Shown: one piece after another, positions 10,501 through 42,232 of the stretch
Position numbering within the stretch: the stretch's first letter is position 1
Layout: every line of letters begins with the position of its first letter
Source of the DNA: an uncultured Solibacteraceae bacterium
GTDB lineage: Bacteria; Acidobacteriota; Vicinamibacteria; Vicinamibacterales; SCN-69-37
DNA length: 64,000 bases
Assembly: GCA_964419785.1 (NCBI GenBank)
Contig: CAYQRM010000190.1
Location: forward strand, 31,290 to 95,289
Direction of reading: 5' to 3'
The notes under the pieces: generated by a model
Seen by the model: the letters and a program-made list of their open reading frames with translations, nothing else
What the model was told of the DNA's origin: nothing
Database searches by the model: none
Made by a program: the position numbers and the translations under genes

Positions 10501-13131
<2,631 letters not shown>

Positions 13132-13234
13132 GTGAGCCGGCGGCGATTATACGCGCCGCGTCAGATGCCGCGCGGCCATGCCCGTCCGGAGTATCTTCCG
13201 CGCCGCGCGTACGCCAGAATGCGCACGGGCCGGG

Positions 13235-22603: not shown

Positions 22604-25528
22604 TTACTTGCGATCGAGCCCAGCCGCTCCGAGCGCGCGGAGCCGATCGACGAACCCCGCATCCGCCCGCTCGAGCCCGCGGATTGCCGTCTCTTCGATC
22701 GCAGCCGCGTCGGTCGTGGCGCCAGTGCGGCGAAGCAGCGCAGCCAGCCTGAACGACAGCGCCGTCGCCTCGAGGTCCGCGCCCGGATCGGGGTCATAGC
22801 TCGGCTCACTCAGGGCCGACCGCAACGTCTTAATGGCTGTCTCCCAATCTGCTTTCTGCAGCCAGGCATCCGACAGCGCACGCACGCCGCGGTAGGATCG
22901 CATTCCCTTGTCCATCCGATCGATCGTGCCGGCCAAAATCTGAATCGCCTCTTCCGGTCGGTGCCGTGCAGACGCCAGTTCTCCGAGAAGGACGCGCATG
23001 GTTGCATTTGTCGGATCCCAGTGCGCCGCCTCCGCGCGTTCGAGCAGGTCCTGGGTATCACGGAGATGGCCCGACTCAATGAGAAACCTCATGCAGTCCA
23101 CGAAGTGTCCATTGCCGGTCGGAGCGTCGCGCGAATCACAGAGCCGGCCGAGGTGCCGTGCTTGGGAGGGGAGATCGCCCGCATAGTAGTCTGCGACTGC
23201 CAGAAAGGCTTCGCGATCCGCGGGACCGATCCGGTCGATGGCCGTGCGGGCGGACGAGATCTGTCCCATCGCGAGGTACAGGCTGGCGACGCGCGGGAAA
23301 AGCGATGTCGAGGACTTTCCCATCGCCACGAGTCGGGGGCCGTTGACGACGCGGGCGATCTCGGTGGTCGTGGCATTTGCATCCCGCGCTCGCCACGCGA
23401 GCTCGGCTGGGGCCAGGAGCACGAGCGACGCATCGGGCCCACCGGGCTTGTCCGCCATCGCGTCGAACAAGCGCAGCGCGCGTGCGTAGGACTGCCGCAC
23501 CTGAGCCGCATCGCGTCCCGCGATGAGCAACCAGCGCGTCCCATTGGCCTGCAGACGAAAGTCGTTGGGCCGAAGCTCTGCCGCTGCCGTGGCCATGTCG
23601 ACCGTGCGATCGATCAATCCCGCTGCAGGGTAGAGAAGGGCGAGCTCGTTAACGATCCAGAAGTTGTCCGGCTGCGTTTGCAGCGCGCCCTCGTAGTGCG
23701 CAAGTGTCCGGTCGGCCTCACCCCGAATTTCTGCGGCGCGGCCGAGAATCCACTCGCGCTCGTGGGGAGGCAGCTGAGAATCCTGCGCGGCCGCCTCCGC
23801 GGCGGCCGCGGTCTGCAGCGCGTCGTTCGTGGCGCCCGTCTTGAACTCACACCACGCCTGCCAGATCTGCGCCAGCGCAAAGGCATGATCGCGGCTGGTC
23901 GCCTGCCGGGCGTGCTCGAGCGCGCCAGCCCAGGTGCCACGACCGCCGAGCCGAAGCGCGTCCGAATAGTCGCGCTGGCTTTCGAGGGAGATGGCCGGTC
24001 CCGTCCGCTGGCGACGGATGTCGTGCGCGCCGCCGAGGCGCTGATCAAGTTCCAGCGCGAGCTCCCGCACCGCCTCCGGCGCTAGCGCGTCGGACGCCAC
24101 GCGCACGTGCAGCGACGTCCTGGCCACGCCGGTGGCCGGATCCACGATCTGGGCATTGATCACATCGCCGGCCCGCTCCGCGTCGACGCTGCCGACGATC
24201 ACGGATCGAATACCTGCGTCGCGCCGCGCGACCTCGATCGCCAGCGCCGGCGTCAGCGGACTGTCGATCGGTTGTCTCATGACCTTCAGTGCATCGTCCA
24301 CGCGCACCGACGGCGCGACCGACACCGTGGGCGAGAGCTCGTACTCGAGCCCCGCTTGAATCGTGCGATCGAAGAGAACCTTGCCCGTATGGTTGTCGAA
24401 CGCTCCGACCAAAATCAGTCTCCGTGCGGCGACTTCCGAAGGGGGCTTCAGCCATGGTCCCCAGGCGACCGCCGCAGCGATGCCAAGAGCGGCGACGCTT
24501 CCGCCTGTAACCGCCGCATACCATCGTCGGGTGTGGCTGCGCAGAAACCCGTCGAGCGCGTCGGCCAATTCGCGCGCGGTCGCAAAGCGATCCGACGGCG
24601 CTGGCGCAAGGGCCCGTTCGATGATCGAGGCCAGCGACCGAGGCACCGCTGCGTTCGCGTGACGCAGGGTGACGCGGCTACCTCGAGCGTGCTCGGCGCG
24701 TAGCTCGCTCAGCGAGGCGGCGCGCACGGGGAAGGCACCGGTCGTCAAGTGGAAGAGTAAGACGCCGACGCTGTACGTGTCGCTCTGAACCGTGGCCCGT
24801 TCACCGCACAAGAGCTCCGGCGAGAGATACGCCGGCGTTCCCGCCATCAACGTCGCGCTGCCGCCCGAGGCGTCGAAGCCTGCCCCGAGGTCCATGAGGA
24901 CGATGCGCCCGGTTTCGTCCTGCATGACGTTCTGGGCCTTGACGTCTCGATGAAGAACGCCCGCGTCATGAATTGCCGCGAGTCCGAGGCACACATCACG
25001 CCCGGCCGATGCCGCCGCACGCGCGTCCAGTCGGCCGGAGTCCTTGATGCGGCTCGCGAGCGTGCTGCCCGGAATCAGCTCCATCCAGATGCCCGCGCGT
25101 CCATCGATTCGGGCCGCGCCGAACACGGTCACGACGTGCGGGTGCCGCACACGCGCGAGCACGCGTCCTTCTTCGATGGCCTCGGCCGCGAGCGAACCGC
25201 CGCTCCTCTCGACCGACCGGAGGAGCTTCAGGGCGACGTGACGGTCGAGGGCCGGATCGTAGGCTTCATACACGTCGCCAAACGAACCCGATCCGATCGA
25301 CCTGAGGATTCGCAGCGCGCCCCATTGGTTGGAGACCGTGACGGTAGTCTGATGGCTCAGTCGTCGGGATGAAGCCTGATGAAAACTTGCGATGCCGGCG
25401 ATGACGTGCAGTTCGCGCAGGAGCGCGGTCGAGTCCGAGTCAGCTCCGCTTGCCTCGGTGTCATGCCAGTCGACGGCCTCGCCTGCCGCGACCGCCCGCG
25501 CGACGTCGTCGAGCCGCGGATCGTTCAT
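22604..25528 (-). CDS. serine/threonine protein kinase with extracytoplasmic sensor region and TPR-rich C-terminus, coupled to an ECF sigma factor
   Basis: 974 aa. Kinase motifs are GSGSFGDVY, VALKLL, HRDVKAQNVM, DLGAG and GTPAYLSPE, followed by one TM (VAALGIAAAVAWGPW) and then a long helical-repeat region. Its ATG 25528 overlaps the sigma factor stop (ATGA). Confidence 0.88.
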   Translation of the reverse strand: MNDPRLDDVARAVAAGEAVDWHDTEASGADSDSTALLRELHVIAGIASFHQASSRRLSHQTTVTVSNQWGALRILRSIGSGSFGDVYEAYDPALDRHVALKLLRSVERSGGSLAAEAIEEGRVLARVRHPHVVTVFGAARIDGRAGIWMELIPGSTLASRIKDSGRLDARAAASAGRDVCLGLAAIHDAGVLHRDVKAQNVMQDETGRIVLMDLGAGFDASGGSATLMAGTPAYLSPELLCGERATVQSDTYSVGVLLFHLTTGAFPVRAASLSELRAEHARGSRVTLRHANAAVPRSLASIIERALAPAPSDRFATARELADALDGFLRSHTRRWYAAVTGGSVAALGIAAAVAWGPWLKPPSEVAARRLILVGAFDNHTGKVLFDRTIQAGLEYELSPTVSVAPSVRVDDALKVMRQPIDSPLTPALAIEVARRDAGIRSVIVGSVDAERAGDVINAQIVDPATGVARTSLHVRVASDALAPEAVRELALELDQRLGGAHDIRRQRTGPAISLESQRDYSDALRLGGRGTWAGALEHARQATSRDHAFALAQIWQAWCEFKTGATNDALQTAAAAEAAAQDSQLPPHEREWILGRAAEIRGEADRTLAHYEGALQTQPDNFWIVNELALLYPAAGLIDRTVDMATAAAELRPNDFRLQANGTRWLLIAGRDAAQVRQSYARALRLFDAMADKPGGPDASLVLLAPAELAWRARDANATTTEIARVVNGPRLVAMGKSSTSLFPRVASLYLAMGQISSARTAIDRIGPADREAFLAVADYYAGDLPSQARHLGRLCDSRDAPTGNGHFVDCMRFLIESGHLRDTQDLLERAEAAHWDPTNATMRVLLGELASARHRPEEAIQILAGTIDRMDKGMRSYRGVRALSDAWLQKADWETAIKTLRSALSEPSYDPDPGADLEATALSFRLAALLRRTGATTDAAAIEETAIRGLERADAGFVDRLRALGAAGLDRK

Positions 25529-30504: not shown

Positions 30505-31965
30505 GTGATCCCTCGCCTCCGCTTCGCTCCGTCGCCGACCGGCTATCTGCACGTCGGCGGAGCGCGCACGGCGTTGTTCAACTGGCTCTACGTCCGGCGC
30601 CACGGCGGCGCGTTCATCCTGCGGATTGAAGACACCGACGTCGAGCGAAGCTCGACCGACATGGTGACAGGCATTGTCGAGAGCTTGCGCTGGCTCGGAC
30701 TCGACTGGGACGAAGGTCCGGAGATCGGCGGCCCGCACGCGCCGTACTTTCAATCGGCGCGGCTCGACCGATATCGCGCTGCAGCTTCCGCGCTGATCGC
30801 GTCCGGTCACGCGTACTACTGTTACTGCAAGCCCGAGGAGTTGAGGGCGAAGCGCGAAGCCGCGGAAGCCGCCGGCCAGTCGGGCATGTACGACCGCACG
30901 TGCCGCCGCCTCACGCGCGAGGAATCTGCGCGCCGCGAGGCCGCGGGCGATCCGCGCGCGATCCGCTTCAAAGTGCCCGACGACGGCGCGACAACGTTCG
31001 TCGATCTCGTCCACGGCCCGATCACGGTCGACCACGACCACATCGAAGACTTCGTCGTCCTCCGCTCGGACAGCCATCCGACGTATCACCTCTCGGTCGT
31101 CGTCGACGACGTGGAGATGCAGGTGACGCACGTTGTGCGTGGCGACGACCATATCTCGAATACGCCGAAGCAGGTGCTGTTGTACGAAGCCATGCGAGCG
31201 CCCGTGCCCGCGTTTGCTCATGTGCCGCTCATTCTCGGCCCGGATAAGAAGCGACTGAGCAAGCGGCACGGCGCGACGTCCGTCGGCGAGTACGAGAAGC
31301 AAGGCTACTTGCCGGAAGCAATGGTGAATTTTCTGGCGCTGCTCGGCTGGTCGCCGGGCGGGGATCGCGAGGTGTTCACGCGCGACGAGCTCGTATCGCT
31401 CTTCACGCTCGAGGGCATCAGCGGCGGCAACGCCGTCTTCGGCCCTGACAAGCTCGATTGGTTCAACCAGCAGCACCTGATGCGCCTGCCGAACGGCGAG
31501 ATCCTGCGGCGCCTGCAGCCGGCGCTCGTCCAGGCCGGCCTCTGGCGAGACTCGTTCGTGGATCGCGACCGGGAATGGATCTCGCAGGTGATCGATCTCC
31601 TCAAGCCGCGCGCCCGCAAGCTCAATGATCTGGTCGACGCGCTCCGGCCGTTCATCGTCGATCGCGTGGAGCGCGATCCGGCGGCGGTATCGAGGTACCT
31701 GTCCGCGCCCGATCTTGCGCCGCATCTCGAGGCCTGGCATGAGAAGCTACGCGACGTTGCGCCGTTCGATCCGCCGACGCTCGAGAGCGCGCTTCGAGCG
31801 TTGGCTGACGCGCGCGGCATCAAGGCTGGCGCGCTGATTCATGCCACGCGCGTTGCGGTGGTCGGTCAGGCCGTCAGTCCAGGTCTCTTCGAGGTGCTCG
31901 CGCTGGTCGGCCGCGATCGCGTGCTCGCGAGACTCGCCGACGCCGCACGAGTGCTCCAGTCCTGA
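30505..31965 (+). CDS. gltX: glutamate--tRNA ligase
   Basis: It has the class I HIGH region (RFAPSPTGYLHVGGARTALFNWLY) and the KMSKS region (KKRLSKRHG). It is 486 aa and starts at GTG 30505. Confidence 0.95.
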   Translation: MIPRLRFAPSPTGYLHVGGARTALFNWLYVRRHGGAFILRIEDTDVERSSTDMVTGIVESLRWLGLDWDEGPEIGGPHAPYFQSARLDRYRAAASALIASGHAYYCYCKPEELRAKREAAEAAGQSGMYDRTCRRLTREESARREAAGDPRAIRFKVPDDGATTFVDLVHGPITVDHDHIEDFVVLRSDSHPTYHLSVVVDDVEMQVTHVVRGDDHISNTPKQVLLYEAMRAPVPAFAHVPLILGPDKKRLSKRHGATSVGEYEKQGYLPEAMVNFLALLGWSPGGDREVFTRDELVSLFTLEGISGGNAVFGPDKLDWFNQQHLMRLPNGEILRRLQPALVQAGLWRDSFVDRDREWISQVIDLLKPRARKLNDLVDALRPFIVDRVERDPAAVSRYLSAPDLAPHLEAWHEKLRDVAPFDPPTLESALRALADARGIKAGALIHATRVAVVGQAVSPGLFEVLALVGRDRVLARLADAARVLQS

Positions 31966-32004: not shown

Positions 32005-32685
32005 ATGGCGAAGCGCGCAAAGAAGGTCGCTCCGAAGAGTCTCGTCAAGGCGAACTGGGCCGCGCTTGCGGGCACCGAGCAGGAATTCGAGCGCGCGCGC
32101 AGGCAGTTGATGCGGCGCGACGCCAGGCTGGCGCCGCACATCAAGCGCGTCGGCCGCTGCCGGCTGCCCGACAGCCGCACCCGCCATCCGTTTGCGGCGC
32201 TCGTGCGCGCGATTCTCTCGCAGCAGCTGTCAGGAAAGGCCGCGGACACGATTCATGGCCGCATGGTCCGGCTCCTGGGCGGTCCGGAGCATCTGACGCC
32301 CGCGCGCTTGCTTGCGGCCGATCAGAAGGCGCTTCGCGCTGCGGGGATCAGCTGGCCGAAGATCTCGTACCTCCGAGATCTCGCCGAGCGCGTGCACGAT
32401 GGCCGTCTCGATCTCGACGCGCTCGAACATCGGTCCGACGATGAAGTGATCGAAACGATCACCGCCGTCAAAGGTCTGGGCCGCTGGTCGGCCGAAATGT
32501 TCTTGATGTTCCGCCTCAATCGTCCAGACGTCTTTCCCGTCGGCGATCTCGGGATCGTCAAAGGCGTGCAGAAGCTCTACGGCATGAAGCGCCGGCCGCA
32601 CCCGCGAACGATGGAACGGCTCGCCGAGCCGTGGCGTCCGTATCGATCGGTCGCGGCGTGGTATCTCTGGCGGCTGCTGGAGTAA
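32005..32685 (+). CDS. DNA-3-methyladenine glycosylase II family protein (HhH-GPD, AlkA-like)
   Basis: The sequence ILSQQLSGKAADTIHGRM and the helix-hairpin-helix VKGLGRWSAEMFLMFRL, followed by PDVFPVGDLGIVKGV (catalytic Asp context), support the call. Confidence 0.82.
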   Translation: MAKRAKKVAPKSLVKANWAALAGTEQEFERARRQLMRRDARLAPHIKRVGRCRLPDSRTRHPFAALVRAILSQQLSGKAADTIHGRMVRLLGGPEHLTPARLLAADQKALRAAGISWPKISYLRDLAERVHDGRLDLDALEHRSDDEVIETITAVKGLGRWSAEMFLMFRLNRPDVFPVGDLGIVKGVQKLYGMKRRPHPRTMERLAEPWRPYRSVAAWYLWRLLE

Positions 32686-32688
32686 CAG

Positions 32689-35475
32689 ATGCGCTGTCCG
32701 TCCTGCCGCGCCAGCCTTCCCGACTCGAGCCGCTTTTGTCCCTCGTGCGGCGTGTCGCTCGACGTGTCGTCCGGCGAGACCCGGCTGGCTGATGACCGGA
32801 CGCGGATGGCGGACGATCGGACGCGCCTGGCTGACGACCAGACGCGTCCCGCGCCGGCGACCAGCGGCGCGCGGTCGGGTTCGACGACGAGTGGATGGCT
32901 GAGCTCGTCGGGATCGATCGATCACGGACGATTCGCGCCGGGCGCCGTGCTCGACAACCGCTATCGCATCATCGGATTGCTGGGCCGCGGCGGGATGGGC
33001 GAAGTGTATCGCGCCGACGACCTGCGGCTGGGCCAGCCCGTTGCACTGAAGTTCCTGCCGGCGGATCTTTCGAGCAACGCGCGCCGCCTCGCGCAGTTTC
33101 ACAACGAAGTGCGGATCGCCCGCCAGGTGTCGCATCCGAACGTCTGTCGGGTGTATGACATCGGCGAGGTTGACGGCGCGCTGTACTTGTCGATGGAGTA
33201 CGTCGACGGCGAAGATCTGGCGGCGTCGCTCAAGCGCGTCGGCAGGTTTCCGGAGGATCGCGCGATCGAGCTCGCGCGGCAGATCGCCGCGGGCCTCGCG
33301 GCCGCGCACGAACGCGGCGTGATTCATCGTGACCTCAAGCCCGCGAACGTCATGCTCGACTCGTCGGGCCGAGTCCGCCTGATGGATTTTGGCCTCGCGG
33401 CAATCGGCGATGTCGGTGACATCCGCGTCGGCACGCCCGCCTACATGGCGCCCGAGCAGCTCGAGGGGCGCGAGGTCACGCTCAAGAGCGACATCTACGC
33501 GCTGGGGCTGGTGCTGTACGAGTTGTTCACCGGGCGCCGTGCCTTCACGGCCGGGACGCTCGCCGATCTCATCCAGGAACAGCAATCGGGCAGCATCACG
33601 GCGCCGACCGAGATCGTCAAGAACCTCGATCCGGCGATCGAGCGCGCGATCATGCGCTGTCTCGATCGCGACCCGGCGAAGCGGCCTGCATCGGCGCTCG
33701 CGGTGTCGGCGGCGCTGCCGGGCGGCGATCCGCTGGCTGCCGCGCTTGCCGCCGGCGAGACGCCGTCGCCGGAAATGGTCGCGGCCGCGGGCGGCGAGGA
33801 GATCGTGCTCTCGCGCACGATCGGTTCTACGTATCTCGCGCTGACGGTCGCGCTGTTGATCGTTGCGCTGCAGATGTCTGGCGCGTCGATGCTGTCGCGC
33901 GTGTCGCTCGAGAAGCCGCCCGAAGTGCTGGCCGATCGCGCCGAGCAGATCCGCGAGTCACTTGGCTACACGGCTCCCGTCGTCGATCGCGCCATCGGCT
34001 ACGAATACAGCGGCGGCTATCTGAACTGGGCCAAGCGCCAGGGCGCGGGCGCCAGCCGATGGACCGTGCTTTCAGGCGCGCGTCCGGCGCCGTTGTATTT
34101 CTGGCGCCGGACGAGCCCGCGCGTGCTCATCCCGGTGGATCAGACCGGCAGCCCCGGGCGCGGCGACCCGCCGATGGACGTCACGGCGATGACGCTCGTC
34201 GACATCGACACGATGGGCCGCCTCCTGCGATTCTCCGCGGTGCCGCCGCAAGTCGAGCGGCCCGACGATCCGCCCGCGCCGGCGTTGGACTGGAGCGTTG
34301 CCTTCTCGGCTGCCGGGCTCGATCAACAGACGTTTCACGAGGTCGCGCCCCAGAGAACACCGGACACGTTCGCCGACGATCGACGCGCGTGGGAGGGCGC
34401 GTTCCCCGGCACGGACACGAAGGTGCGGCTCGAGGGCGCGTCGTACCGCGGCAGGATTGTCTGGTTCGCGCTGATCGGACCGTGGTCCGTGCCGACGCGC
34501 GATACGCCATTCGACGTCGCCGACAACAGCACGCCGCCGGCGCAGGTCTTCGTGATTCTCGCATTGCTGCTCCTGGCCGCGTGGCTCGCGCACCGCAACG
34601 TCCAGTCAGGCCGGGCGGATCGGCGCGGCAGTTTCCGGCTCGCGGCCTTTACGTTTTTTCTGTTCATGACGCAGTGGGCGGTGGCCCCGCACGTGTCGAA
34701 CATCCCGGCGGAGTGGACGAGATTTCTTCTGAGCGGCTTGGCGATCGCGCTGCTGCTCGCCGCGATTCTCTACATCGTGTACCTGGCGCTCGAGCCATTC
34801 ATCCGGCGGAGCTGGCCGACCGTGCTCGTTGGCTGGACGCGGCTGGTGTCCGGGCGTTTCCGCGATCCGATCGTGGGCCGCGATCTGCTGGCCGGTGTGA
34901 TGTTCGGCGTCGCGTTCGGCGTGTTCGATCTGGTCCTTCAAGTGATGCCCGTCTGGTTCGGGCGGCCCGAGCCGATTCCCCACCAGCCGCAGATCAACAC
35001 GTTGCTCGGCTTGCACGAGCTCACGATCAGCCTGCTCGGCTGCCTGAACAACGGCTTGCAAAACGGCCTCATTTTCACGCTGCAGTTCGCGCTCGTGCGT
35101 GATTTTCTGCTGAGACTCGCGCGACGCCTGGGGCCGAACGCCGCGGCGGACGTCTCGACGGCCATCGCCATCGTCCTCGTGACGCTCATCAACATGCTCA
35201 CGAGCCGAAGCGACTGGTGGCTCGTGACCACGATGTCGACGATCGAGACAGCCCTGACGCTCCTCGTGCTGCTGCGGATTGGCCTGTTGGCCACGACGGT
35301 GATGTTCGTCATCACCGCCCTGATTCAGCGGATGCCGCTCACGCTCGACGGCACGAAGTTCTATGCGAACGAAGGCTGGTTGGCCGTGGCGATCGTGTTC
35401 GGTCTGGGCGCGCTCGGCTTCTGGACGGCTCGTCAACAGGCGCAGGCGCCCGGGCGTATAGCCGTAAGAGCGTAG
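32689..35475 (+). CDS. serine/threonine protein kinase with N-terminal zinc ribbon and polytopic C-terminal membrane domain (paralog of 10501..13131)
   Basis: 928 aa. It has the zinc ribbon MRCPSCRASLPDSSRFCPSCG and the kinase motifs GRGGMGEVY, VALKFL, HRDLKPANVM, DFGLA and GTPAYMAPE. It shares the juxtamembrane LPGGDPLAAALAAGETPSPEMVA and the C-terminal motifs YLALEPFIRRSWP and WTRLVSGRFRDPIVGR with the paralog. Confidence 0.9.
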   Translation: MRCPSCRASLPDSSRFCPSCGVSLDVSSGETRLADDRTRMADDRTRLADDQTRPAPATSGARSGSTTSGWLSSSGSIDHGRFAPGAVLDNRYRIIGLLGRGGMGEVYRADDLRLGQPVALKFLPADLSSNARRLAQFHNEVRIARQVSHPNVCRVYDIGEVDGALYLSMEYVDGEDLAASLKRVGRFPEDRAIELARQIAAGLAAAHERGVIHRDLKPANVMLDSSGRVRLMDFGLAAIGDVGDIRVGTPAYMAPEQLEGREVTLKSDIYALGLVLYELFTGRRAFTAGTLADLIQEQQSGSITAPTEIVKNLDPAIERAIMRCLDRDPAKRPASALAVSAALPGGDPLAAALAAGETPSPEMVAAAGGEEIVLSRTIGSTYLALTVALLIVALQMSGASMLSRVSLEKPPEVLADRAEQIRESLGYTAPVVDRAIGYEYSGGYLNWAKRQGAGASRWTVLSGARPAPLYFWRRTSPRVLIPVDQTGSPGRGDPPMDVTAMTLVDIDTMGRLLRFSAVPPQVERPDDPPAPALDWSVAFSAAGLDQQTFHEVAPQRTPDTFADDRRAWEGAFPGTDTKVRLEGASYRGRIVWFALIGPWSVPTRDTPFDVADNSTPPAQVFVILALLLLAAWLAHRNVQSGRADRRGSFRLAAFTFFLFMTQWAVAPHVSNIPAEWTRFLLSGLAIALLLAAILYIVYLALEPFIRRSWPTVLVGWTRLVSGRFRDPIVGRDLLAGVMFGVAFGVFDLVLQVMPVWFGRPEPIPHQPQINTLLGLHELTISLLGCLNNGLQNGLIFTLQFALVRDFLLRLARRLGPNAAADVSTAIAIVLVTLINMLTSRSDWWLVTTMSTIETALTLLVLLRIGLLATTVMFVITALIQRMPLTLDGTKFYANEGWLAVAIVFGLGALGFWTARQQAQAPGRIAVRA
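32776..32847 (+). repeat. in-frame 21-nt tandem repeat (about 3.4 copies) encoding (T/E)RLADD(R/Q) heptapeptides
   Basis: The units are GAGACCCGGCTGGCTGATGAC, CGGACGCGGATGGCGGACGAT, CGGACGCGCCTGGCTGACGAC and CAGACGCGTCCC. They translate to ETRLADD RTRMADD RTRLADD QTRP and lie between the zinc ribbon and the kinase domain. Confidence 0.85.
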
Positions 35476-35500: not shown

Positions 35501-36958
35501 ATGCCTTTGCTGCTTCGCCCCCGCGTCGCCATCACGAGCTTGCTCATCGCCGTTCCCGCGGCGTTGCTGCTGCTTTACGCGATCGCGTCGATTCGGGCGG
35601 CGGATGCGTCGCTCTCGCTCGAGCGTTTCGTCACGTCCCAGATCAACGATCAAGTGCGCGAGCGGTGCGAGAGCGATCCGATGTGGTTCCTGACGGGACC
35701 GCTGCCCGGCCGTCCGCCGCACGGCACCGTGCAGAACGCGGATCCCGATGCGATGGGACCGCGGCCGAAGGTCGAGGAGCAGCCGTTCGAGCTCTTCGCG
35801 TTCGACGAGGACTTTCTGGGCTCGAGCACGGCCACGCCGCGTTTCCCCAACGACCTCCGCATCGGACTCCGCCGATCGTCGAAGCCGATCATCGAGCCAT
35901 TCGACACGAAGGACGGTGCCGGCCTGCAGATGGCGGCCTGGACGGGCTGGATCACGGGACCGTGCGCGGTCTTTCTGGGCCGCATGCGTCCGGTGCCGCA
36001 CGCGTTTCGATCCCAGGTCGAATTGTTTGGCGGTCTGCTCTTCGTTTGTTATGCGGTGGCGTTGTTGTCGGTCGCGCCGACGGTGTTTCGCATCCGCCGG
36101 CTGGCCGGCGACGCCCGCGAGGCTTCGCGAGAACAACACGCATCGATCGCGCCAGATCGCAAGCGCGACGAAATCAGCTCGATCGCGTTCGTCTACAACG
36201 AGACGGCCAAGCTGCTGCACGAACGGACGACGGGGACCAAAGAACGTGATGAAACGCTCAAGCGGTTCGTCGAGGACGCGGCCGGCATGGCAAGGCCGCT
36301 CGACGCGCTGACCGCGAGGCTCGGCGTGCTCGAAATGCGCGACGGCGTACCCGGCGGCCTTCGCGCCGAGCTGCGCGAAGCCGTGCGCGCGGCCCACGAT
36401 CTCGAAGCGCGCCTCGGCAATCTCTCGATGGCGGCCGAACTGCATGCGCGCCGCGGTCCGTTCGTGCGCGAGACGCTCGATCTCGATCCGCTGCTCGCGC
36501 GCGTCGTGAGCCGCCACGAGGCGCTCGCGCGGACGATGGACGTCACGCTGCACGTCGCCGTGCCGTCCGCCCCGGTCATGGTCTCTGCCGATCAAGCCAA
36601 GCTCGATCGCGCGCTGGGCAATTTGATCGACAACGCGATCCGCTACAACCGCGCCGGCGGAGAAGTCGACGTCGAGTTGAGCGCGGGCAGTGCCGGGGCG
36701 TTCGTCCTGAAGATTCGCGACAACGGACGCGGCGTCACGGACGAAGACTTCAAGTCGCTAACGGCGATTCGCCGCTTTCGGGGCGACGAAGGACGCGAGC
36801 GCCGGCCCGGCGTGCCGGGCCTTGGATTAGCCGTGGCGCGGGAAGTGATCGAGCGGTTGGGATGGAAGCTCGACCTCGGCCGCCACGCGACGGGCGGCGT
36901 CGAGGTCGAGGTGAGTGGATTGGCGGCGTCTACTTCGCCGGCGCCTTTGGCTCGATGA
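35501..36958 (+). CDS. membrane sensor histidine kinase-like protein with degenerate H-box (phospho-acceptor His absent)
   Basis: It has two TM helices flanking a periplasmic segment of about 150 aa, followed by a HAMP-like linker. The DHp region reads KRFVEDAAGMARPLDALTARL, with Gly where the conserved His is expected. The HATPase_c boxes are intact: N (LGNLIDNAIRYN), G1 (IRDNGRGV) and G2 (GLGLAVAREV). Confidence 0.8.
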   Translation: MPLLLRPRVAITSLLIAVPAALLLLYAIASIRAADASLSLERFVTSQINDQVRERCESDPMWFLTGPLPGRPPHGTVQNADPDAMGPRPKVEEQPFELFAFDEDFLGSSTATPRFPNDLRIGLRRSSKPIIEPFDTKDGAGLQMAAWTGWITGPCAVFLGRMRPVPHAFRSQVELFGGLLFVCYAVALLSVAPTVFRIRRLAGDAREASREQHASIAPDRKRDEISSIAFVYNETAKLLHERTTGTKERDETLKRFVEDAAGMARPLDALTARLGVLEMRDGVPGGLRAELREAVRAAHDLEARLGNLSMAAELHARRGPFVRETLDLDPLLARVVSRHEALARTMDVTLHVAVPSAPVMVSADQAKLDRALGNLIDNAIRYNRAGGEVDVELSAGSAGAFVLKIRDNGRGVTDEDFKSLTAIRRFRGDEGRERRPGVPGLGLAVAREVIERLGWKLDLGRHATGGVEVEVSGLAASTSPAPLAR

Positions 36959-37517
36959 TGATCGGATCCGGCACGTGATTGACGACCGGTGGAATCGTTT
37001 TCAGATACGCGAAGATCGCCTTCAGGTCCTCGTCTGAATAGTTGCGGAAGGCCGGCCACGGCATCGGCGGCAGAATCGGCCGCGACGTGCCCATGTGCTT
37101 GCCCTCGCGAATCGCCTTGATGAACATGTCCTCGGTCCAGATGCCGAGGCCCGTGTTCTGATCGGGCGTCAGATTCGCCGTGTACGAAATGCCCCACGGT
37201 CCGGACCACGCGGTGAACGTGTTCGAGACCGCGGCCATCCACGTACCTTCGAGCTTGGGCGGCTTGTCGACTTTCATGCCTTCCGGATGGCCGGACAGCA
37301 TGCGCGACATGTCAGGCTCGGGCCCGTTCGCGCCCATCTTCATCGGCGTGTGACAGTCGTTGCAGCCGGCGGCGGACACCAGATACTTGCCGCGCTCGGC
37401 CGGAGACGGTTTGGGGGCGACGGCCACGGTGGGCGTCGGTGGGGGCGCGGTCTCAGAGCACGCTGCCGTGATGAGCAGAGCCGTACCACCAACCAACCAG
37501 ATTCCAACTGACTTCAT
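36930..37517 (-). CDS. c-type cytochrome (single CxxCH), lipoprotein-like signal
   Basis: It has the signal MKSVGIWLVGGTALLITAACSE, the heme-binding site GCNDCH, and a distal Met candidate in PILPPMPWPAF. The 3-prime end overlaps the convergent kinase gene by 29 bp. Confidence 0.82.
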   Translation of the reverse strand: MKSVGIWLVGGTALLITAACSETAPPPTPTVAVAPKPSPAERGKYLVSAAGCNDCHTPMKMGANGPEPDMSRMLSGHPEGMKVDKPPKLEGTWMAAVSNTFTAWSGPWGISYTANLTPDQNTGLGIWTEDMFIKAIREGKHMGTSRPILPPMPWPAFRNYSDEDLKAIFAYLKTIPPVVNHVPDPIIIEPKAPAK

Positions 37518-37557: not shown

Positions 37558-39996
37558 TCAGCGTTCGATCAGCGCAAGGAGGGGATCGATGCGTACCGCA
37601 CGTCTTGCGGGAATCGCGCAGGCGGCGGCAGCGGAGAGCAGCATCACGCTCGCGACGGCGGCATACGTTGGCAGGTCGAACGGTGTCAGACCGAAGAGCA
37701 AACTGCGGACGAGCGGCGTCGCAAGCGCGGCGACCAGCAACCCTGCAACGAGCCCGGCGCCGACGGGCATCAAGCCTTCGCGAGCGATGAGACGCCACAC
37801 GTCGACATGCGCGGCGCCAAGCGCGATGCGGATCCCGATCTCGCGCGTGCGCCGCATGACCGACTGCGCGACGACGGCGTAGACGCCCATCGCAGCGAGC
37901 ATCAGCGCCACGCCGGCGAAGAGCATCACGAGATCGAGCTGGAAGCGGCGCGTCGCGACCGAGAAAGTGACGAGATCGTCGGCGGACAGAATGCGCGGCG
38001 CCGGCAGGTCTGGCAGTGCTTCTCGAACGACGGCGCGTACGGCCGCGACGATCGATGAGGGATCGGCCGTCGTGCGAACGGCCATCGCGACGTTCGACCG
38101 GAATGTCTGCCAGATCGGCACGTACACCGTGAGGTTCGGCGCTTTCTGCAGGCTCACGTGCACGTCACTGACGATTCCGATGATCTCGACCGGCGGCGCG
38201 TCCGGACCGCCGAGACGGAAGTGCCGTCCGATCGGATTTTCGTGCGGCCAGAGCCTCGCGGCGGTGCCGACCGAGATCAGGCCGACGCGATGGTCGCCGT
38301 CGGCGTCGCGCATCGGCCGTCCGGCGACGACCGCGATGCCCATCGCGTTGAAGTACTCGCCGGTGACGCATCGGTAGTCGGTAATCGGGTGCTCGTCCGT
38401 CGCGACGCTGTTGCTTTCGGCGTAGAGCCCGAGATTGCTGCCTTCGCCCGTGACCGGCAGCTTGTTGGTGACGCCGACCGCGGCCACACCTGGAAGTGCC
38501 TGCACTCGCGCGACGACATCGCGCAGGAGCGCCAGCGCCGTCGTCTCATTCTGAGCGCGCGGGCCCGAAAGCACGAGCGGGACGACGAACGCGTGCTCCG
38601 CGTCGAAGCCTTTGTCGACGTGCATCAGCCGCACGAAGCTTCCGAGCAGCAAGCCGGCGAGGACGAGGCACGACGCGCAGAGCGCAACTTCGACGCCAAT
38701 CAAAACCCGCCTCGCGGTGCCGCCGCGCCTGCTTTCCGTCGCCGACCGGTCGATCGATCGAAGCGCCTCCTGAGGATCGGTCCGCGCGTTCTGCCAGGCG
38801 GGAAGGAAGCCGATGACAATGGCGGTCACGACGACAAGTCCACCGACGAACAGCCAGACGACGGGATCAAGTGTCAACTCGCGAAGCATCGGCAGACCGA
38901 GCGGCGCAGTGACGAGCACCGTGCGCAGCGCCCATGCCGCGATCGCGATGCCGAAGGCGGCACCGAGGATCGTGAGTGCGAGGCTCTCCGCGAGCACGAG
39001 ACGGACGAGATCGCGCGTGCCCGCGCCGAGCGCCGCGCGAATCGCCAGCTCGCGCCGACGGCCCGATGCGCGCGCGAGCAGCACGTTCGACAAGTTGACA
39101 CAAACGATCATGAGCACGGCACCAACCGCGGTGACGAGCATCAGCACGCCGTCGCGCGACCGCGCGGCCACTTGATCGCCGAGCGGCGAGACGATCGCGT
39201 GCAGCTGTCCGTCGGCGCCGGCCGAGTGCGCGATCGCGCGCTCGATGCTGTCGAGGTCCGCTTGCGCCGCGGCAACCGTGACGCCGCGTTTCATGCGCGC
39301 CAGACAGCCATAGTCGAACTCCGACATCGTCACGAGGTCGCTGTCGCGCACGACGAACGGACGCCACAGGTCGGCCTCGGCGTCGTTGAACGCCATCTTC
39401 TGCAGCTGGCCTTGCCTCGGCACGCGGACGCCCGGCGGCAGCACGCCGACGATTTCCGACGGCGCATCATCGATCATCACGCGGCGGCCGATGACGCCCG
39501 GATCGCCGCCGAACGCGCGTGTCCACAACGCAAAGCTCAAGATGACGACGCGATCGCGGCCGGGCTGATCGTCGCCCTCGGCAAATACGCGTCCCCACAG
39601 GGGGTGCACGCCGAGGATGCCGAAGAAGTTTGCGGACACGACGCCGGCGTTCACGCGGACGGGCTCGCCGCCGATGGAAAGCTTCGCGCCGCCGCCCGCG
39701 ACGAGCGCGAACGCGTCGAAGGACACGCTGTTCTTGCGCCATTCGAGCACGTCGTGCGCGTTGACCGGAAGCGTCGGGCTGATCGCGGCGAGACGCGGCA
39801 CGGCTTCCTCGATCGACACGAGCCGGTCGGGCGTCGCGTAGGGCAGCGGTCGAAGCCAGACAGCGTTCACGACGCTGAACATGGCGGTGTTCGCGCCGAT
39901 GCCCACCGCCAGCATCGCCACGGCGAGGGCGGCAAATCCGGGCGCGCGCCGGAGGCTGCGGAGCGGTCGCCAGATGTCGATCAAGACGGTGGGCAT
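37558..39996 (-). CDS. ADOP-family duplicated ABC-type permease (MacB/FtsX-like, two FtsX modules)
   Basis: 812 aa. The N-terminus is IWRPLRSLRRAPGFAALAVAMLAVGIGANTAMFS. It has two copies of the pattern TM, periplasmic domain, then three FtsX helices (RELAIRAALGAG... and REIGIRIALGAA...). No adjacent ATPase gene is present. Confidence 0.88.
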   Translation of the reverse strand: MPTVLIDIWRPLRSLRRAPGFAALAVAMLAVGIGANTAMFSVVNAVWLRPLPYATPDRLVSIEEAVPRLAAISPTLPVNAHDVLEWRKNSVSFDAFALVAGGGAKLSIGGEPVRVNAGVVSANFFGILGVHPLWGRVFAEGDDQPGRDRVVILSFALWTRAFGGDPGVIGRRVMIDDAPSEIVGVLPPGVRVPRQGQLQKMAFNDAEADLWRPFVVRDSDLVTMSEFDYGCLARMKRGVTVAAAQADLDSIERAIAHSAGADGQLHAIVSPLGDQVAARSRDGVLMLVTAVGAVLMIVCVNLSNVLLARASGRRRELAIRAALGAGTRDLVRLVLAESLALTILGAAFGIAIAAWALRTVLVTAPLGLPMLRELTLDPVVWLFVGGLVVVTAIVIGFLPAWQNARTDPQEALRSIDRSATESRRGGTARRVLIGVEVALCASCLVLAGLLLGSFVRLMHVDKGFDAEHAFVVPLVLSGPRAQNETTALALLRDVVARVQALPGVAAVGVTNKLPVTGEGSNLGLYAESNSVATDEHPITDYRCVTGEYFNAMGIAVVAGRPMRDADGDHRVGLISVGTAARLWPHENPIGRHFRLGGPDAPPVEIIGIVSDVHVSLQKAPNLTVYVPIWQTFRSNVAMAVRTTADPSSIVAAVRAVVREALPDLPAPRILSADDLVTFSVATRRFQLDLVMLFAGVALMLAAMGVYAVVAQSVMRRTREIGIRIALGAAHVDVWRLIAREGLMPVGAGLVAGLLVAALATPLVRSLLFGLTPFDLPTYAAVASVMLLSAAAACAIPARRAVRIDPLLALIER

Positions 39997-40067
39997 GCTT
40001 CGTTAGACGAGCCTTCGATAGCGCGTGTTGGCAGCCGAAACCGGCGCTAGAATACGGCTCGACTTCC

Positions 40068-40649
40068 ATGAAACGCCGGACGGTGCTCCAGTCAATTGCC
40101 GCGTTCGTGGCGGTGCGGCCGTTCACGCGGTTGCGGCTGTTCGCCCAGAACTCAATAAGCGACGCGGACGTCGCCACGCTCAAGGCGATCGCCGAGGTCA
40201 CGCTGCCGGCCTCGGCGGGTGCCGCTGGTCGCGACCAGGCCGTCGAGCACTTCGTCGGCTGGGTGCGTAATTACAAGGAAGGAGCGGACCGCGGGCACGG
40301 CTACGGCAACTCGCAGCTCTCGCCGCCCACCGGACCGTCGCCGGCGGCGCGTTATCCCGCGCAGTTCGCCGCGCTCGACAAGGCGGCGGCCGATCAGGGC
40401 GCCGCGTCGTTTGCCAAGCTGCCCGTTGCGGCGCGGCGCGCGATCGTCGAGTCCGCGCTCAACACGCCACAGCCGGTGACGCGGCTGCCGGCGCGGCCTA
40501 CCGGCGCCAATCTCATTGCCGACTTCATGGGCTTGTACTTCAACAGCGCCGAGGCCGTTGATCTCTGCTATCGCGCGGCGATCGAGCGCGACACTTGCCG
40601 CGGTCTCGAAAATTCCGAGCAGGCGCCGCGGTCGCTCGGAGGGCAGTAG
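40068..40649 (+). CDS. gluconate 2-dehydrogenase subunit 3-like small subunit with Tat signal
   Basis: The N-terminus MKRRTVLQSIAAFVAV is twin-arginine-like. It is 193 aa and lies immediately upstream (2-nt gap) of a GMC flavoprotein, as in membrane-associated FAD dehydrogenase complexes. Confidence 0.7.
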   Translation: MKRRTVLQSIAAFVAVRPFTRLRLFAQNSISDADVATLKAIAEVTLPASAGAAGRDQAVEHFVGWVRNYKEGADRGHGYGNSQLSPPTGPSPAARYPAQFAALDKAAADQGAASFAKLPVAARRAIVESALNTPQPVTRLPARPTGANLIADFMGLYFNSAEAVDLCYRAAIERDTCRGLENSEQAPRSLGGQ

Positions 40650-40651
40650 CC

Positions 40652-42232
40652 ATGGCGCGCTACGAAGCAGACGTCGTGGTGATCGGCGGTGGCGTGACCG
40701 GCGCGATGATGGCGCAGAAGCTGTCCGAGCTTCGACCCAACTGGTCGATCATCGTCGTCGAAGCGGGCAAGCGGCTGTTCGATTTCGAGAGTCGCTTCGA
40801 GTACCGCCAGCGCAATTTGGATTACGGCGAGAACCAGTGGCCGGGAGACTTCGTCGCCGATCAAACGGCGCGCGGCGTGATTTCGCGCGCGATGGCGGTC
40901 GGCGGATCCGCGCTGCACTGGGGCGGCGTCTGCAATCGATTTTCTGAAGAAGATACGCGGCTCAAATCGATGTACGGCCTCGCCGTCGATTGGCCGATCG
41001 AGTGGAAAGAGCTCGAGACGTTCTACTGCGAAGCCGAACGGCGGCTGGGGGTGTCGGGCGAGCCGAGTCCGCTCGCCGAAGATTGGCGGTCGGAGCCGTA
41101 TCCGATGCCGGCGATGCCGATGACGTTCAACATGGTCCAGCTCAAGGGCTGGGCCGAGAAGAGCGGCATCAAGTTCTGGACGACGCCGCAGGCGAAGAAC
41201 ACGGTCGACGGGTACGGCGGACGCGGCAAGTGCCGTCGCTGCAATACGTGCGAAGTGTGTCCAACCGGCGCGCGCTACTCGCCGGACTGGACGTTCAAGC
41301 AGCTGCTCGACGCGAAGAAGATTCAGCTGCACGACCAGACGCTCGTGCGCAAGCTCACGCTCGACGGCTCGACGACGAAGATCGCGTCGGCGCAGGCCGC
41401 GAAGGAAGACGGATCGGACAACAATGTCGAGTACCGCGCGCGCACATTCGTGATTGCGTCCGGCTACTGCTGGAGCTCGCACCTTCTGCTGGTCTCGGCG
41501 AACTCGCGCTTCCCGAATGGTCTCGCCAACACGTCGGATCACGTCGGGCGATACTTGACCGGGCATCTCGCGTATCAGACGCAGATCGATCTCAACGTGA
41601 AGATCTTCCCGGGCATGAACGAGCAACACAGCCTGATCTCGCGTCAATTCTTCCGCTGCCGCACGGATCAGCCGTACGTGCGCCACGACCTTCGCGTGTG
41701 GGAGAGCGCGAGCGGCCGGGCGCCCCAGCTTCGCGACGGATCGGGCAAGCTGCTGCTCGGCGACGATCTGCTCGCCGACTGGCGGTCGCGGACGACGCGC
41801 GGATCGGCGCGTGTGCGCGGGTACTACACGGTCGAGCCCGACAAGGACAGCCGGCTGACGCTCGACGCCTCGACGAAGAATCGCTGGGGCGATCCGCTGC
41901 CCGTGCTGCAGCACAAGATCGACGCTGCCACGGCCGCGCGCGCCGGCGCGACGCGCGATCACTTCCAGACTCTTTTTGCCCAGCTCGCGAAAGCGAACGA
42001 CGGCAAGATGGGCAATCTGTCGGGCCTCAACTATCAGGACCATCCGGCCGGCGGCTGCCGCATGGGCACCGACCCGTCGACCAGCGTCGTCGACAGCCAC
42101 GGCCGCACGCACGATCACGACAATCTCTTCGTCGTCGGCTCGCCGACGCTCCCGACCGGCGGCTGCACCAACGGCACGCTGACCTTCGTCGCGATGACGC
42201 TGCGATCAGCGACCGCGATCGCTGCGAATTAG
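40652..42232 (+). CDS. GMC-family FAD-dependent oxidoreductase
   Basis: Track ORF 40595..42232; the start is ATG 40652. It has the FAD fingerprint DVVVIGGGVTGAMMAQKL and a C-terminal GMC region (HPAGGCRMGTDPSTSVVDSHGRTHDHDNLFVVGSPTLPT). Confidence 0.88.
   Translation: MARYEADVVVIGGGVTGAMMAQKLSELRPNWSIIVVEAGKRLFDFESRFEYRQRNLDYGENQWPGDFVADQTARGVISRAMAVGGSALHWGGVCNRFSEEDTRLKSMYGLAVDWPIEWKELETFYCEAERRLGVSGEPSPLAEDWRSEPYPMPAMPMTFNMVQLKGWAEKSGIKFWTTPQAKNTVDGYGGRGKCRRCNTCEVCPTGARYSPDWTFKQLLDAKKIQLHDQTLVRKLTLDGSTTKIASAQAAKEDGSDNNVEYRARTFVIASGYCWSSHLLLVSANSRFPNGLANTSDHVGRYLTGHLAYQTQIDLNVKIFPGMNEQHSLISRQFFRCRTDQPYVRHDLRVWESASGRAPQLRDGSGKLLLGDDLLADWRSRTTRGSARVRGYYTVEPDKDSRLTLDASTKNRWGDPLPVLQHKIDAATAARAGATRDHFQTLFAQLAKANDGKMGNLSGLNYQDHPAGGCRMGTDPSTSVVDSHGRTHDHDNLFVVGSPTLPTGGCTNGTLTFVAMTLRSATAIAAN

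Follow-up and report, generated by a model that had tools for sequence, protein, structure and literature searches.

Architecture of the encoded protein

The 64-kb stretch of DNA analysed here (the window, whose numbering is used for all positions unless a locus is named) comes from an uncultured Solibacteraceae bacterium and encodes, at 35501-36958, a membrane protein built like a sensor histidine kinase (HK). Its H-box, the motif that carries the acceptor His in active HKs, has no His. The ATG of this gene lies 25 nt behind the stop codon (35475) of a gene for a membrane Ser/Thr kinase (STK). The original prediction, made from the sequence alone, had offered three roles for the HK-like protein: a pseudo-HK that serves as an ATP-binding scaffold, a partner or substrate of the upstream STK, or a kinase that uses a different acceptor residue. 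Comparison with its relatives indicates that, most likely, an orphaned sensor kinase has been repurposed here rather than lost, and that its product is an uncharacterised pseudo-HK. The two genes and the parts of the HK-like protein, including the domain for dimerization and His phosphotransfer (DHp) and the domain for catalysis and ATP binding (CA), are as follows.

32689-35475, plus strand: Hanks-type STK with a zinc ribbon, 928 residues (Pkinase E = 8e-55); candidate partner
35501-36958, plus strand: His-less, HK-derived sensor, 485 residues (HATPase_c alone by Pfam; more than 290 homologues)
35525-35593, plus strand: first transmembrane segment (TM1), residues 9-31 (hydrophobic stretch 7-35 by Kyte-Doolittle; model helix 5-46)
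35594-36001, plus strand: extracytoplasmic sensor domain, residues 32-167, with invariant C56 and C155 (from conservation in the clade)
36023-36088, plus strand: second transmembrane segment (TM2), residues 175-196 (hydrophobic stretch 171-199; model helix 168-210)
36092-36235, plus strand: HAMP-like helix-loop-helix linker, residues 198-245 (model helices 168-210 and 226-279; loop 211-225)
36266-36301, plus strand: degenerate H-box FVEDAAGMARPL, residues 256-267, with the His column deleted or Gly
36395-36397, plus strand: H299 on DHp helix alpha2, within RAAHDLEARLGNL, residues 296-308
36470-36922, plus strand: CA (HATPase_c) domain, residues 324-474 (Pfam HATPase_c)
36614-36649, plus strand: N box LGNLIDNAIRYN, residues 372-383 (from the translation)
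36713-36736, plus strand: G1 box IRDNGRGV, residues 405-412 (from the translation)
36770-36796, plus strand: lid/F box RRFRGDEGR (from the translation)
36818-36847, plus strand: G2 box GLGLAVAREV, residues 440-449 (from the translation)

All motif strings quoted in the original prediction are found in the translation of the open reading frame (ORF) at 35501-36958, which has a DHp hairpin and, behind it, a GHKL catalytic domain that bears the N, G1, F, and G2 boxes. HATPase_c is the sole Pfam match (residues 364-471, E = 4e-18). The NCBIfam full-length HK models BaeS, CreC, MtrB, and QseC cover residues 180-471, far below their cut-offs. The AlphaFold model (mean predicted local distance difference test, pLDDT, of 82) places helix alpha1 at residues 226-279, a turn at 280-284, helix alpha2 at 285-316, and the CA domain at 324-474. 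Foldseek matches this model to the class I HKs WalK, CpxA, HK853, and DivL (E = 1e-12 to 1e-17), and DivL (4q20) is among the best matches, with 25-26% identity.

The predicted HAMP-like linker is apparent in the AlphaFold model and gains support from the homologues P0041, P0102, P0251, and P0288, which match Pfam HAMP, but the 485-residue protein itself has no HAMP match. The domain of about 135 residues between the two TM segments has no Pfam match. It is modelled as an alpha/beta fold with weak, non-significant similarity to PAS/PDC-like folds (CitA, KinD; E >= 0.04).

Loss of the acceptor histidine

Three independent alignments agree on the register of the degenerate H-box. In a phmmer alignment with CpxA, G262 pairs with His248 and the following residue is missing. 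A profile built from 30 members of the family matches the H-boxes of VicK, CpxA, and QseC with no gaps; its consensus at the His column is Glu, and the family consensus 'RRFVesTeEeVarPL' lies over 'F-x-x-x-x-S-H-E-L-R-T-P-L'. In a BLASTP alignment with P0251, the nearest relative that has the His (39% identity over 470 residues), the one-residue gap of the query sits opposite the His of 'NTTHDIALPL'. With a His put in at this gap in the manner of P0251, the query box reads FVEDATHDMARPL. The predicted H-box without His is thus upheld by all three alignments, but whether the His became Gly, as first proposed, or was deleted depends on the alignment used.

Two features of HisKA-class HKs, an acceptor His in the alpha1 H-box and a match to a HisKA-type profile, are absent from the protein. 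HisKA, HisKA_2, and HisKA_3 give no match in Pfam even at E <= 1. The relatives P0251, P0288, and P0389 do match HisKA. A shifted register, in which 'AHDL' (containing H299) would be the true H-box of the HisKA_3-like 'HD' type, fails on geometry. H299 lies just 75 residues before the N box. For the degenerate box this distance is about 115 residues, and in real kinases it is 100-120. This register is rejected because its spacing is too short and because the three alignments and the AlphaFold hairpin agree on the other one.

The loss extends to a large group of proteins. A homology search returned more than 290 relatives, all from metagenome-assembled genomes of Vicinamibacterales/Acidobacteriota. 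HATPase_c is present and no HisKA is recorded in the 120 best homologues listed. The His is absent from 156 of 160 non-identical homologues, in which the column holds Asp (52), Glu (51), Ala (21), Ser (18), Thr (6), or His (4). The one-residue deletion of the window protein, a feature of its subclade, is common to 24 sequences from independent assemblies. GTDB species representatives add forty loci, which take the family to identities as low as 31-35% and are still His-less. The question raised with the original prediction, whether orthologues also lack the His, is therefore answered by more than 150 sequences without the His, the most distant at about 31% identity. Orthologues that have a normal H-box, the finding that was to have pointed to a strain-specific mutation or an error, do exist at 39% identity; however, the loss is ancient and clade-wide rather than strain-specific. 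A sequencing error or strain-specific mutation is ruled out by the deletion in 24 independent sequences and by the more than 150 His-less relatives.

The residues of the ATP site are largely retained among the 160 homologues: N374 in 159, N378 in 148, D407 in 151, G409 in 159, and the RFRGDE motif in 160. The retrieval pattern for the GTDB loci included RRFRGDE, so that the invariance of this motif is overstated among the loci, but the same lid motif is also present in the independently retrieved homologues. The window's subclade has canonical N, G1, F, and G2 boxes. In the most divergent subclade, whose members have less than 40% identity (L027-L045; L and P numbers denote loci and proteins), the DHp hairpin is shortened by about 19 residues, and other residues often stand in for the Mg-binding Asn (N378) and the second G1 Gly. 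The RRFRGDEGRG lid motif and the G2 box stay invariant in this subclade.

Loss of the response regulator

An exhaustive profile search of 1.84 billion representatives found 1010 proteins at E <= 1e-30. A neighbour-joining (NJ) tree was built from 144 near-full-length tips, taken from the 148 best hits fetched plus the sequences of the loci and homologues, all aligned to the family profile. Clade A (62 tips) includes the window protein and all GTDB loci, carries the RRFRGDE lid, and is His-less except for L023/P0243 and P0104/L017/L025. Clade B, the canonical sister clade (81 tips), has F-[VL]-A-N-T-T-H-D-V-M-x-P-L-T-V-L-Q-G-H at the same column in every member. The His-bearing P0251 branches at the base of clade A. 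Save for a single alignment gap at C56, neither C56 nor C155 varies, and clade B has both as well. Their conservation suggests a structural or redox-sensitive disulfide. The regions around these two residues lie at 35657-35680 and 35957-35974.

The His-bearing relatives P0251 (L047), P0288 (L048, L049), and P0389 (L052) are each encoded directly behind an OmpR-type response regulator (RR). The most informative of these is P0389, which is encoded on a 0.93-Mb contig and shares 73% identity with P0251. Its neighbourhood reads gltX, HhH-GPD, STK, SCO1/SenC, unknown, YHYH, RR, HK (with His), Gluconate_2-dh3, GMC oxidoreductase. The window reads gltX, HhH-GPD, STK, HK (without His), cytochrome c, MacB-like permease, Gluconate_2-dh3, GMC oxidoreductase. 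The genes that flank the two kinases in the window and the divergent operon of L052 are as follows.

30505-31965, plus strand: gltX, glutamyl-tRNA synthetase (tRNA-synt_1c 4e-102); synteny anchor
32005-32685, plus strand: HhH-GPD (AlkA-like) DNA glycosylase (PF00730 9e-17)
36930-37517, minus strand: cytochrome c gene (Cytochrom_C 8e-08), convergent
37558-39996, minus strand: MacB/FtsX-type permease, between the cytochrome c gene and the Gluconate_2-dh3/GMC pair
39879-42229, plus strand: Gluconate_2-dh3 and GMC oxidoreductase pair (phmmer with the L052 proteins 1e-57 and 1e-209)
L052 7206-9219, minus strand: SCO1/SenC, unknown, and YHYH operon, divergent from the RR-HK pair

Since both flanks agree, the His-less gene and the RR-linked kinase are positional orthologues. 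The STK of L052 also corresponds to that of the window, with 54% identity over 761 residues. Together with the fold match and the full-length homology to P0251 and P0389, this synteny establishes that the protein descends from a true HK.

The cognate RR itself is gone. As the original prediction stated, no receiver-domain gene is found in the 64-kb window: a receiver hidden Markov model and two OmpR-type RR queries give best E-values of 0.15-1.8, while the same receiver model finds the receivers of control loci at 1e-17 to 1e-35, and the RR queries also pick up clear positives there. An adjacent receiver is likewise absent from about 40 His-less loci, and the SCO1/SenC, unknown, and YHYH genes occur in none of the His-less loci. 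From these gene orders, clade A arose after the loss of a segment of about 5 kb that held the RR and the divergent operon. A single loss of this kind accounts for the lack of an RR, for the adjacency of HhH-GPD to the gene in almost all loci, and for the 25-nt spacing to the STK. The nature of the lost operon hints that the ancestral two-component system (TCS) may have controlled copper or redox homeostasis.

In L052, which is a nanopore-derived assembly, the STK at 4706-7226 is split inside the kinase domain into ORFs of 80 and 775 residues. This split is probably an assembly frameshift and not a true pseudogene.

Constraint and selection

Clades A and B have nearly equal mean pairwise identities (0.42 and 0.41, respectively), and their column entropies differ by region. 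The H-box core is far more variable in clade A than in clade B (2.40 versus 0.73 bits), as is DHp alpha1 (2.18 versus 1.26 bits). The extracytoplasmic domain shows the opposite pattern (1.55 versus 2.60 bits) and is the most conserved region of clade A. The ATP lid is also more conserved in clade A (1.01 versus 1.46 bits), and the CA domain differs little (1.71 versus 1.63 bits). In clade A, constraint has thus eased at the H-box and become stricter for the sensor domain and the ATP lid.

The ORF is intact in all homologues. Compared with four orthologues, the gene as a whole has a ratio of nonsynonymous to synonymous substitution rates (dN/dS) of 0.17-0.30; the ratio is 0.31-0.36 in the DHp domain and 0.10-0.25 in the extracytoplasmic domain. 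The whole-gene values indicate that the gene is maintained by purifying selection. What clade A as a whole conserves is a sensor and a CA surface, and neither phosphotransfer nor necessarily ATP chemistry. ATP chemistry does not look like a clade-wide target of selection because N378 and the G1 Gly decay in the distant subclade while the lid stays invariant.

The upstream Ser/Thr kinase

The zinc-ribbon STK on the same strand, ending at 35475, is present as originally described and has a complete Pkinase domain with all of its motifs (GxGxxG, VALK, HRD, DFG, and APE). Its N-terminus carries a CxxC...CxxC pattern that scores 24.7 bits against Pfam Zn_Ribbon_1 (cut-off 25). The protein has one TM segment, an extracytoplasmic region of about 210 residues, and about seven C-terminal TM segments.

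Nine of 38 distinct species loci have an STK of the same architecture adjoining the His-less gene on the same strand, six with the STK upstream (L001/L009, L007, L008, L010, L020, L026) and three with it downstream (L028, L032, L040). The three loci with a downstream STK belong to the sub-40% subclade. Three separate branches of clade A, namely the window's group, L020, and L026, have an STK between HhH-GPD and the His-less gene. The HK-adjacent STKs are among one another's nearest neighbours. P0195, picked solely as such a nearest neighbour, proved to be followed by a gene for a 472-residue, HATPase_c-only protein with a 4-bp overlap. The STK paralogues P0168 and P0142 (46-47% identity) adjoin no such gene. 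The nearest-neighbour lists and the successful prediction for P0195 suggest that the HK-adjacent STKs form one orthologue group.

The short spacing in the window is less telling. In L052, three genes separate the STK from the normal RR-HK pair; the STK was therefore already in the neighbourhood, and the 25-nt spacing can be read as a by-product of the deletion. The proposal that the STK is the partner or substrate of the HK-like protein fares accordingly in two ways. One STK orthologue group stays attached in two gene orders, but the adjacency can come from the deletion and about three quarters of the orthologues have no STK within 10 kb. As a partner, the STK is the best available candidate, though a tentative one. 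The more specific arrangement, in which an HK-derived sensor has been rewired across the order to Hanks-type Ser/Thr signalling and the His-less DHp/CA module, with its invariant RRFRGDEGR lid, forms a dedicated complex with the STK as its allosteric sensor subunit or phospho-substrate, is rather unlikely on present comparisons. A literature search found no description of this family, no pseudo-HK/STK pair, and no hybrid pathway of a two-component sensor and a eukaryote-like kinase.

A putative pseudo-histidine kinase and its alternatives

It is reasonably probable that the gene encodes a pseudo-HK, a dimeric TM sensor descended from an OmpR-partnered HisKA-class HK. A residue that His autophosphorylation requires has been lost across the orthologue group, which is one mark of the pseudo-HK class. 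Purifying selection and the recurring linkage to one STK orthologue group hint indirectly that a function through a protein partner may have been kept. This role, the first of those put forward in the original prediction, agrees with the clade-wide loss of the His, the loss of the cognate RR, the position of the H-box as the least constrained part, and purifying selection on the gene. The comparisons show the loss of the His and of the RR, the descent from a canonical HK, the shift in constraint, and the purifying selection; that the protein binds nucleotide, signals through contact with another protein, and has the STK as its partner is inferred.

The history of the gene may be reconstructed as follows. 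In the common ancestor of a large Vicinamibacterales clade, the segment with the cognate RR and the divergent SCO1/SenC-YHYH operon was lost. The orphaned kinase then lost its His, which became Asp or Glu in most lineages and Ala or Ser in others and was deleted in the window's lineage. Helix alpha1, which docks the RR, drifted. The protein was kept all the same, and its sensor domain with the Cys pair, the HAMP-like linker, the CA domain, and above all the RRFRGDEGR lid are still under purifying selection. In the present protein, the extracytoplasmic domain would sense a signal that runs through TM2 and the HAMP-like linker to the DHp/CA module. This module, probably still nucleotide-binding in the window's lineage, would shift its conformation and modulate a partner by direct contact, without His-Asp phosphotransfer. 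The most likely partner in the window would be the putatively co-transcribed membrane STK, either as a regulated target or as a kinase that phosphorylates the pseudo-HK.

Several points weigh against a pseudo-HK that acts on the STK. ATP binding, the absence of autophosphorylation, and protein contact are all deductions. A catalytic role may persist, with the N, G1, F, and G2 boxes intact and the CA domain as constrained as in real kinases. An unlinked RR or HK partner may lie elsewhere in the genome, beyond the 64-kb window. A few clade A members (L023/P0243 and P0104/L017/L025) have a His at the canonical column. No RR is within reach of the gene in L023 or L025, and the His of these nested members may be either retained or a reversion from Asp. 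Other points concern the STK. No STK is adjacent in 29 of the 38 distinct loci, nearly all of which have none on a flank of up to 10 kb. The STK family is hugely expanded, with more than 6000 matches, and three STKs lie in the window. A crude NJ tree does not group the HK-adjacent STKs as one clade. Finally, the adjacency appears to be explained at least partly by the deletion that removed the RR.

The His-bearing boxes of these clade A members have a His followed by Asp, as in 'STVHDVAAPM' and 'ATEHDVAYPL' (L023 9761-11422, L017 2-1468, L025 2-1441, and P0104).

Alternatively, the protein may still be a protein kinase whose CA domain phosphorylates a Ser, Thr, or Tyr residue, either its own or one in a partner that may be the STK. 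HK-related Ser/Thr kinases include SpoIIAB/RsbW, mitochondrial PDK/BCKDK, plant phytochromes, and subfamily-2 ethylene receptors. Such an activity would fit the canonical boxes of the protein and its subclade and the constraint on the CA domain, which equals that of clade B and is exceeded by that on the ATP lid. Several homologues also have weak precomputed matches to PF13581, a family of the anti-sigma Ser-kinase type. However, the 485-residue protein has no match to PF13581 (HATPase_c_2) or BCDHK at E <= 1, and no Ser, Thr, or Tyr is conserved at the His column, which holds D, E, A, S, or a gap. No STAS or anti-sigma gene is called beside the gene in the loci with gene calls. The frequent replacement of N378 and the second G1 Gly in the distant subclade, under an invariant lid, also speaks against catalysis, and this alternative is improbable.

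A second alternative keeps the pseudokinase but gives it a genuine HK or a phosphorylated RR elsewhere in the genome as its partner, so that the STK would be a mere syntenic neighbour. All characterised bacterial pseudo-HKs act on TCS partners, following the logic of RocA-CovS, RetS-GacS, and DivL-DivK~P/CckA. Most His-less orthologues have no adjacent STK, the adjacency that exists is explained by the deletion of the RR, and the cluster of Asp and Glu at the former His site could mimic phospho-His on the RR-docking face. However, the RR-docking helix alpha1 is the least conserved part, which argues against a conserved contact made through an RR or the DHp domain. Furthermore, no HK or RR lies within the 64 kb or beside the gene in any locus, and the STK orthologue group stays attached through a change of gene order. 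A TCS partner of this kind is given a correspondingly low probability.

The third role in the original prediction, a kinase with a different acceptor residue, turns on H299. The nearby His noted on the expected second DHp helix does lie on the modelled alpha2, four turns from the hairpin and about level with the former H-box on alpha1. It is kept in 134 of 143 homologues with at least 40% identity (25/25 at >= 60% and 109/118 at 40-60%). However, clade B has a His at the same alpha2 column ('EEAHYMASL') alongside its normal acceptor. H299 is therefore ancestral and predates the loss of the acceptor. It is also missing from all 17 members below 40% identity and from L020 and L023, and no RR is present to receive its phosphate. 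A preprint on new H-boxes regards a conserved alpha2 His as doubtful (10.64898/2026.02.27.708494). H299 as a replacement acceptor is discarded on the grounds of its conservation in the His-bearing clade B and its absence from the most divergent subclade, and an active HK that autophosphorylates on it is very unlikely.

A decaying relic, sequencing error, or strain-specific mutation without function, to which the fast-evolving H-box and DHp domain and the missing RR and putative target operon might point, is effectively refuted by the comparative data, namely the intact ORF, the same deletion in 24 independent assemblies, the lack of His in more than 150 sequences down to 31% identity, a dN/dS of 0.17-0.30, and a sensor domain more conserved than in functional relatives.

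Comparison with known systems

To our knowledge, pseudo-HKs are known from few studied cases, such as DivL, RocA, and RcsD, and the frequency and route by which sensor kinases are repurposed after the loss of their regulator are poorly documented. The loci described here provide a natural before-and-after series, in which a canonical RR-HK pair can be compared with the gene at the same position after the RR was deleted and the His was gone. The series may serve as a dated example of neofunctionalisation rather than decay, and the adjacent membrane STK offers a testable candidate partner. The importance of the case is limited by its setting in uncultured soil Acidobacteria and by its comparative basis throughout.

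The immediate canonical relatives of the window protein are P0251, at 39% identity over the full length, and P0389, at the same chromosomal position. With HKs of the CpxA/BaeS/QseC/EnvZ type, it shares the order of a TM segment, a periplasmic domain, a second TM segment, HAMP, DHp, and CA. Unlike canonical HisKA-class HKs, it has no acceptor His, HisKA match, or adjacent RR, and its H-box is drifting.

In DivL, Tyr stands at the site of the acceptor His and the N, G1, F, and G2 boxes persist; the protein lacks kinase activity and works by binding DivK~P and controlling CckA (PMC4211667). The window protein resembles DivL of Caulobacter crescentus in its class I DHp and CA domains, in the replacement of the His across an orthologue group, and in the retained boxes. 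DivL acts without phosphotransfer, and by analogy the same may hold here. However, the two proteins are not orthologous. DivL is cytoplasmic or polar with PAS domains, whereas the window protein, from Acidobacteriota, is a periplasmic sensor with two TM segments. Moreover, DivL has a conserved Tyr within a conserved patch, while the corresponding site is D, E, A, S, or deleted here and alpha1 is the least conserved part. DivL has the TCS partners DivK~P and CckA, and no such partner is identifiable here.

RocA of Streptococcus pyogenes is a membrane pseudokinase that acts by contacting CovS (PMC7028121). Like RocA, the window protein is a membrane-anchored HK homologue. RocA works without autophosphorylation through a membrane partner, and a similar mode may be proposed by analogy for the window protein. 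The two differ in what has degenerated: RocA keeps its His (H246, which is dispensable) and has a degenerate CA domain, whereas the window protein is His-less with intact CA motifs. RocA also has six TM segments and no periplasmic domain, and its partner is an HK, not an STK.

A GHKL ATP-binding domain without a phosphorylatable His is shared with SpoIIAB/RsbW, PDK/BCKDK, plant phytochromes, and ETR2-type receptors. Unlike SpoIIAB/RsbW and PDK/BCKDK, the window protein has no PF13581 or BCDHK match and no STAS neighbour, and the ATP-site residues of its clade partly decay.

The family also calls for caution in annotation, as His-less proteins carry sensor histidine kinase names in public records, which list them as 'HAMP domain-containing sensor histidine kinase'.

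Neighbouring genes

The gene order around the HK-like gene is largely inherited. gltX occupies the same position in L001, L003-L006, and L052. Of the 38 distinct loci with upstream sequence retained, 37 have HhH-GPD upstream of the HK-like gene; it is mostly the direct neighbour, has only the STK in between in six loci, and is 7.8 kb away in L023. The glycosylase was considered as a functional partner and set aside, as it also lies upstream in L052, at a distance of five genes. Given the gltX and HhH-GPD block of L052, the adjacency is best read as inherited synteny uncovered by the deletion.

Downstream, the 3' ends of the HK-like gene and the cytochrome c gene overlap by 29 nt (36930-36958). 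A cytochrome c gene also follows the HK-like gene in L001, L004, L007, L008, L010, L011, L014, L023, and L026, and is convergent in all but L026. It does not follow the HK in the His-bearing loci L047 and L052. The Gluconate_2-dh3/GMC pair comes after the HK in L001, L007, L008, L010, L011 (about 8 kb away), L014, L023, L026, L047, and L052. In L001 and L007 the pair directly follows the cytochrome c gene; the intervening permease of the window therefore looks like a local insertion or rearrangement.

Two further STK genes lie on the minus strand of the window. The gene at 10504-13146 encodes a zinc-ribbon paralogue of the STK at 32689-35475 with the same multi-TM C-terminal domain. STKs with this domain are massively expanded in these Acidobacteria, and the domain family has its more than 6000 matches in the protein collection. 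The gene at 22604-25528 encodes a protein of 974 residues whose likeness to the STK at 32689-35475 is confined to the catalytic domain.

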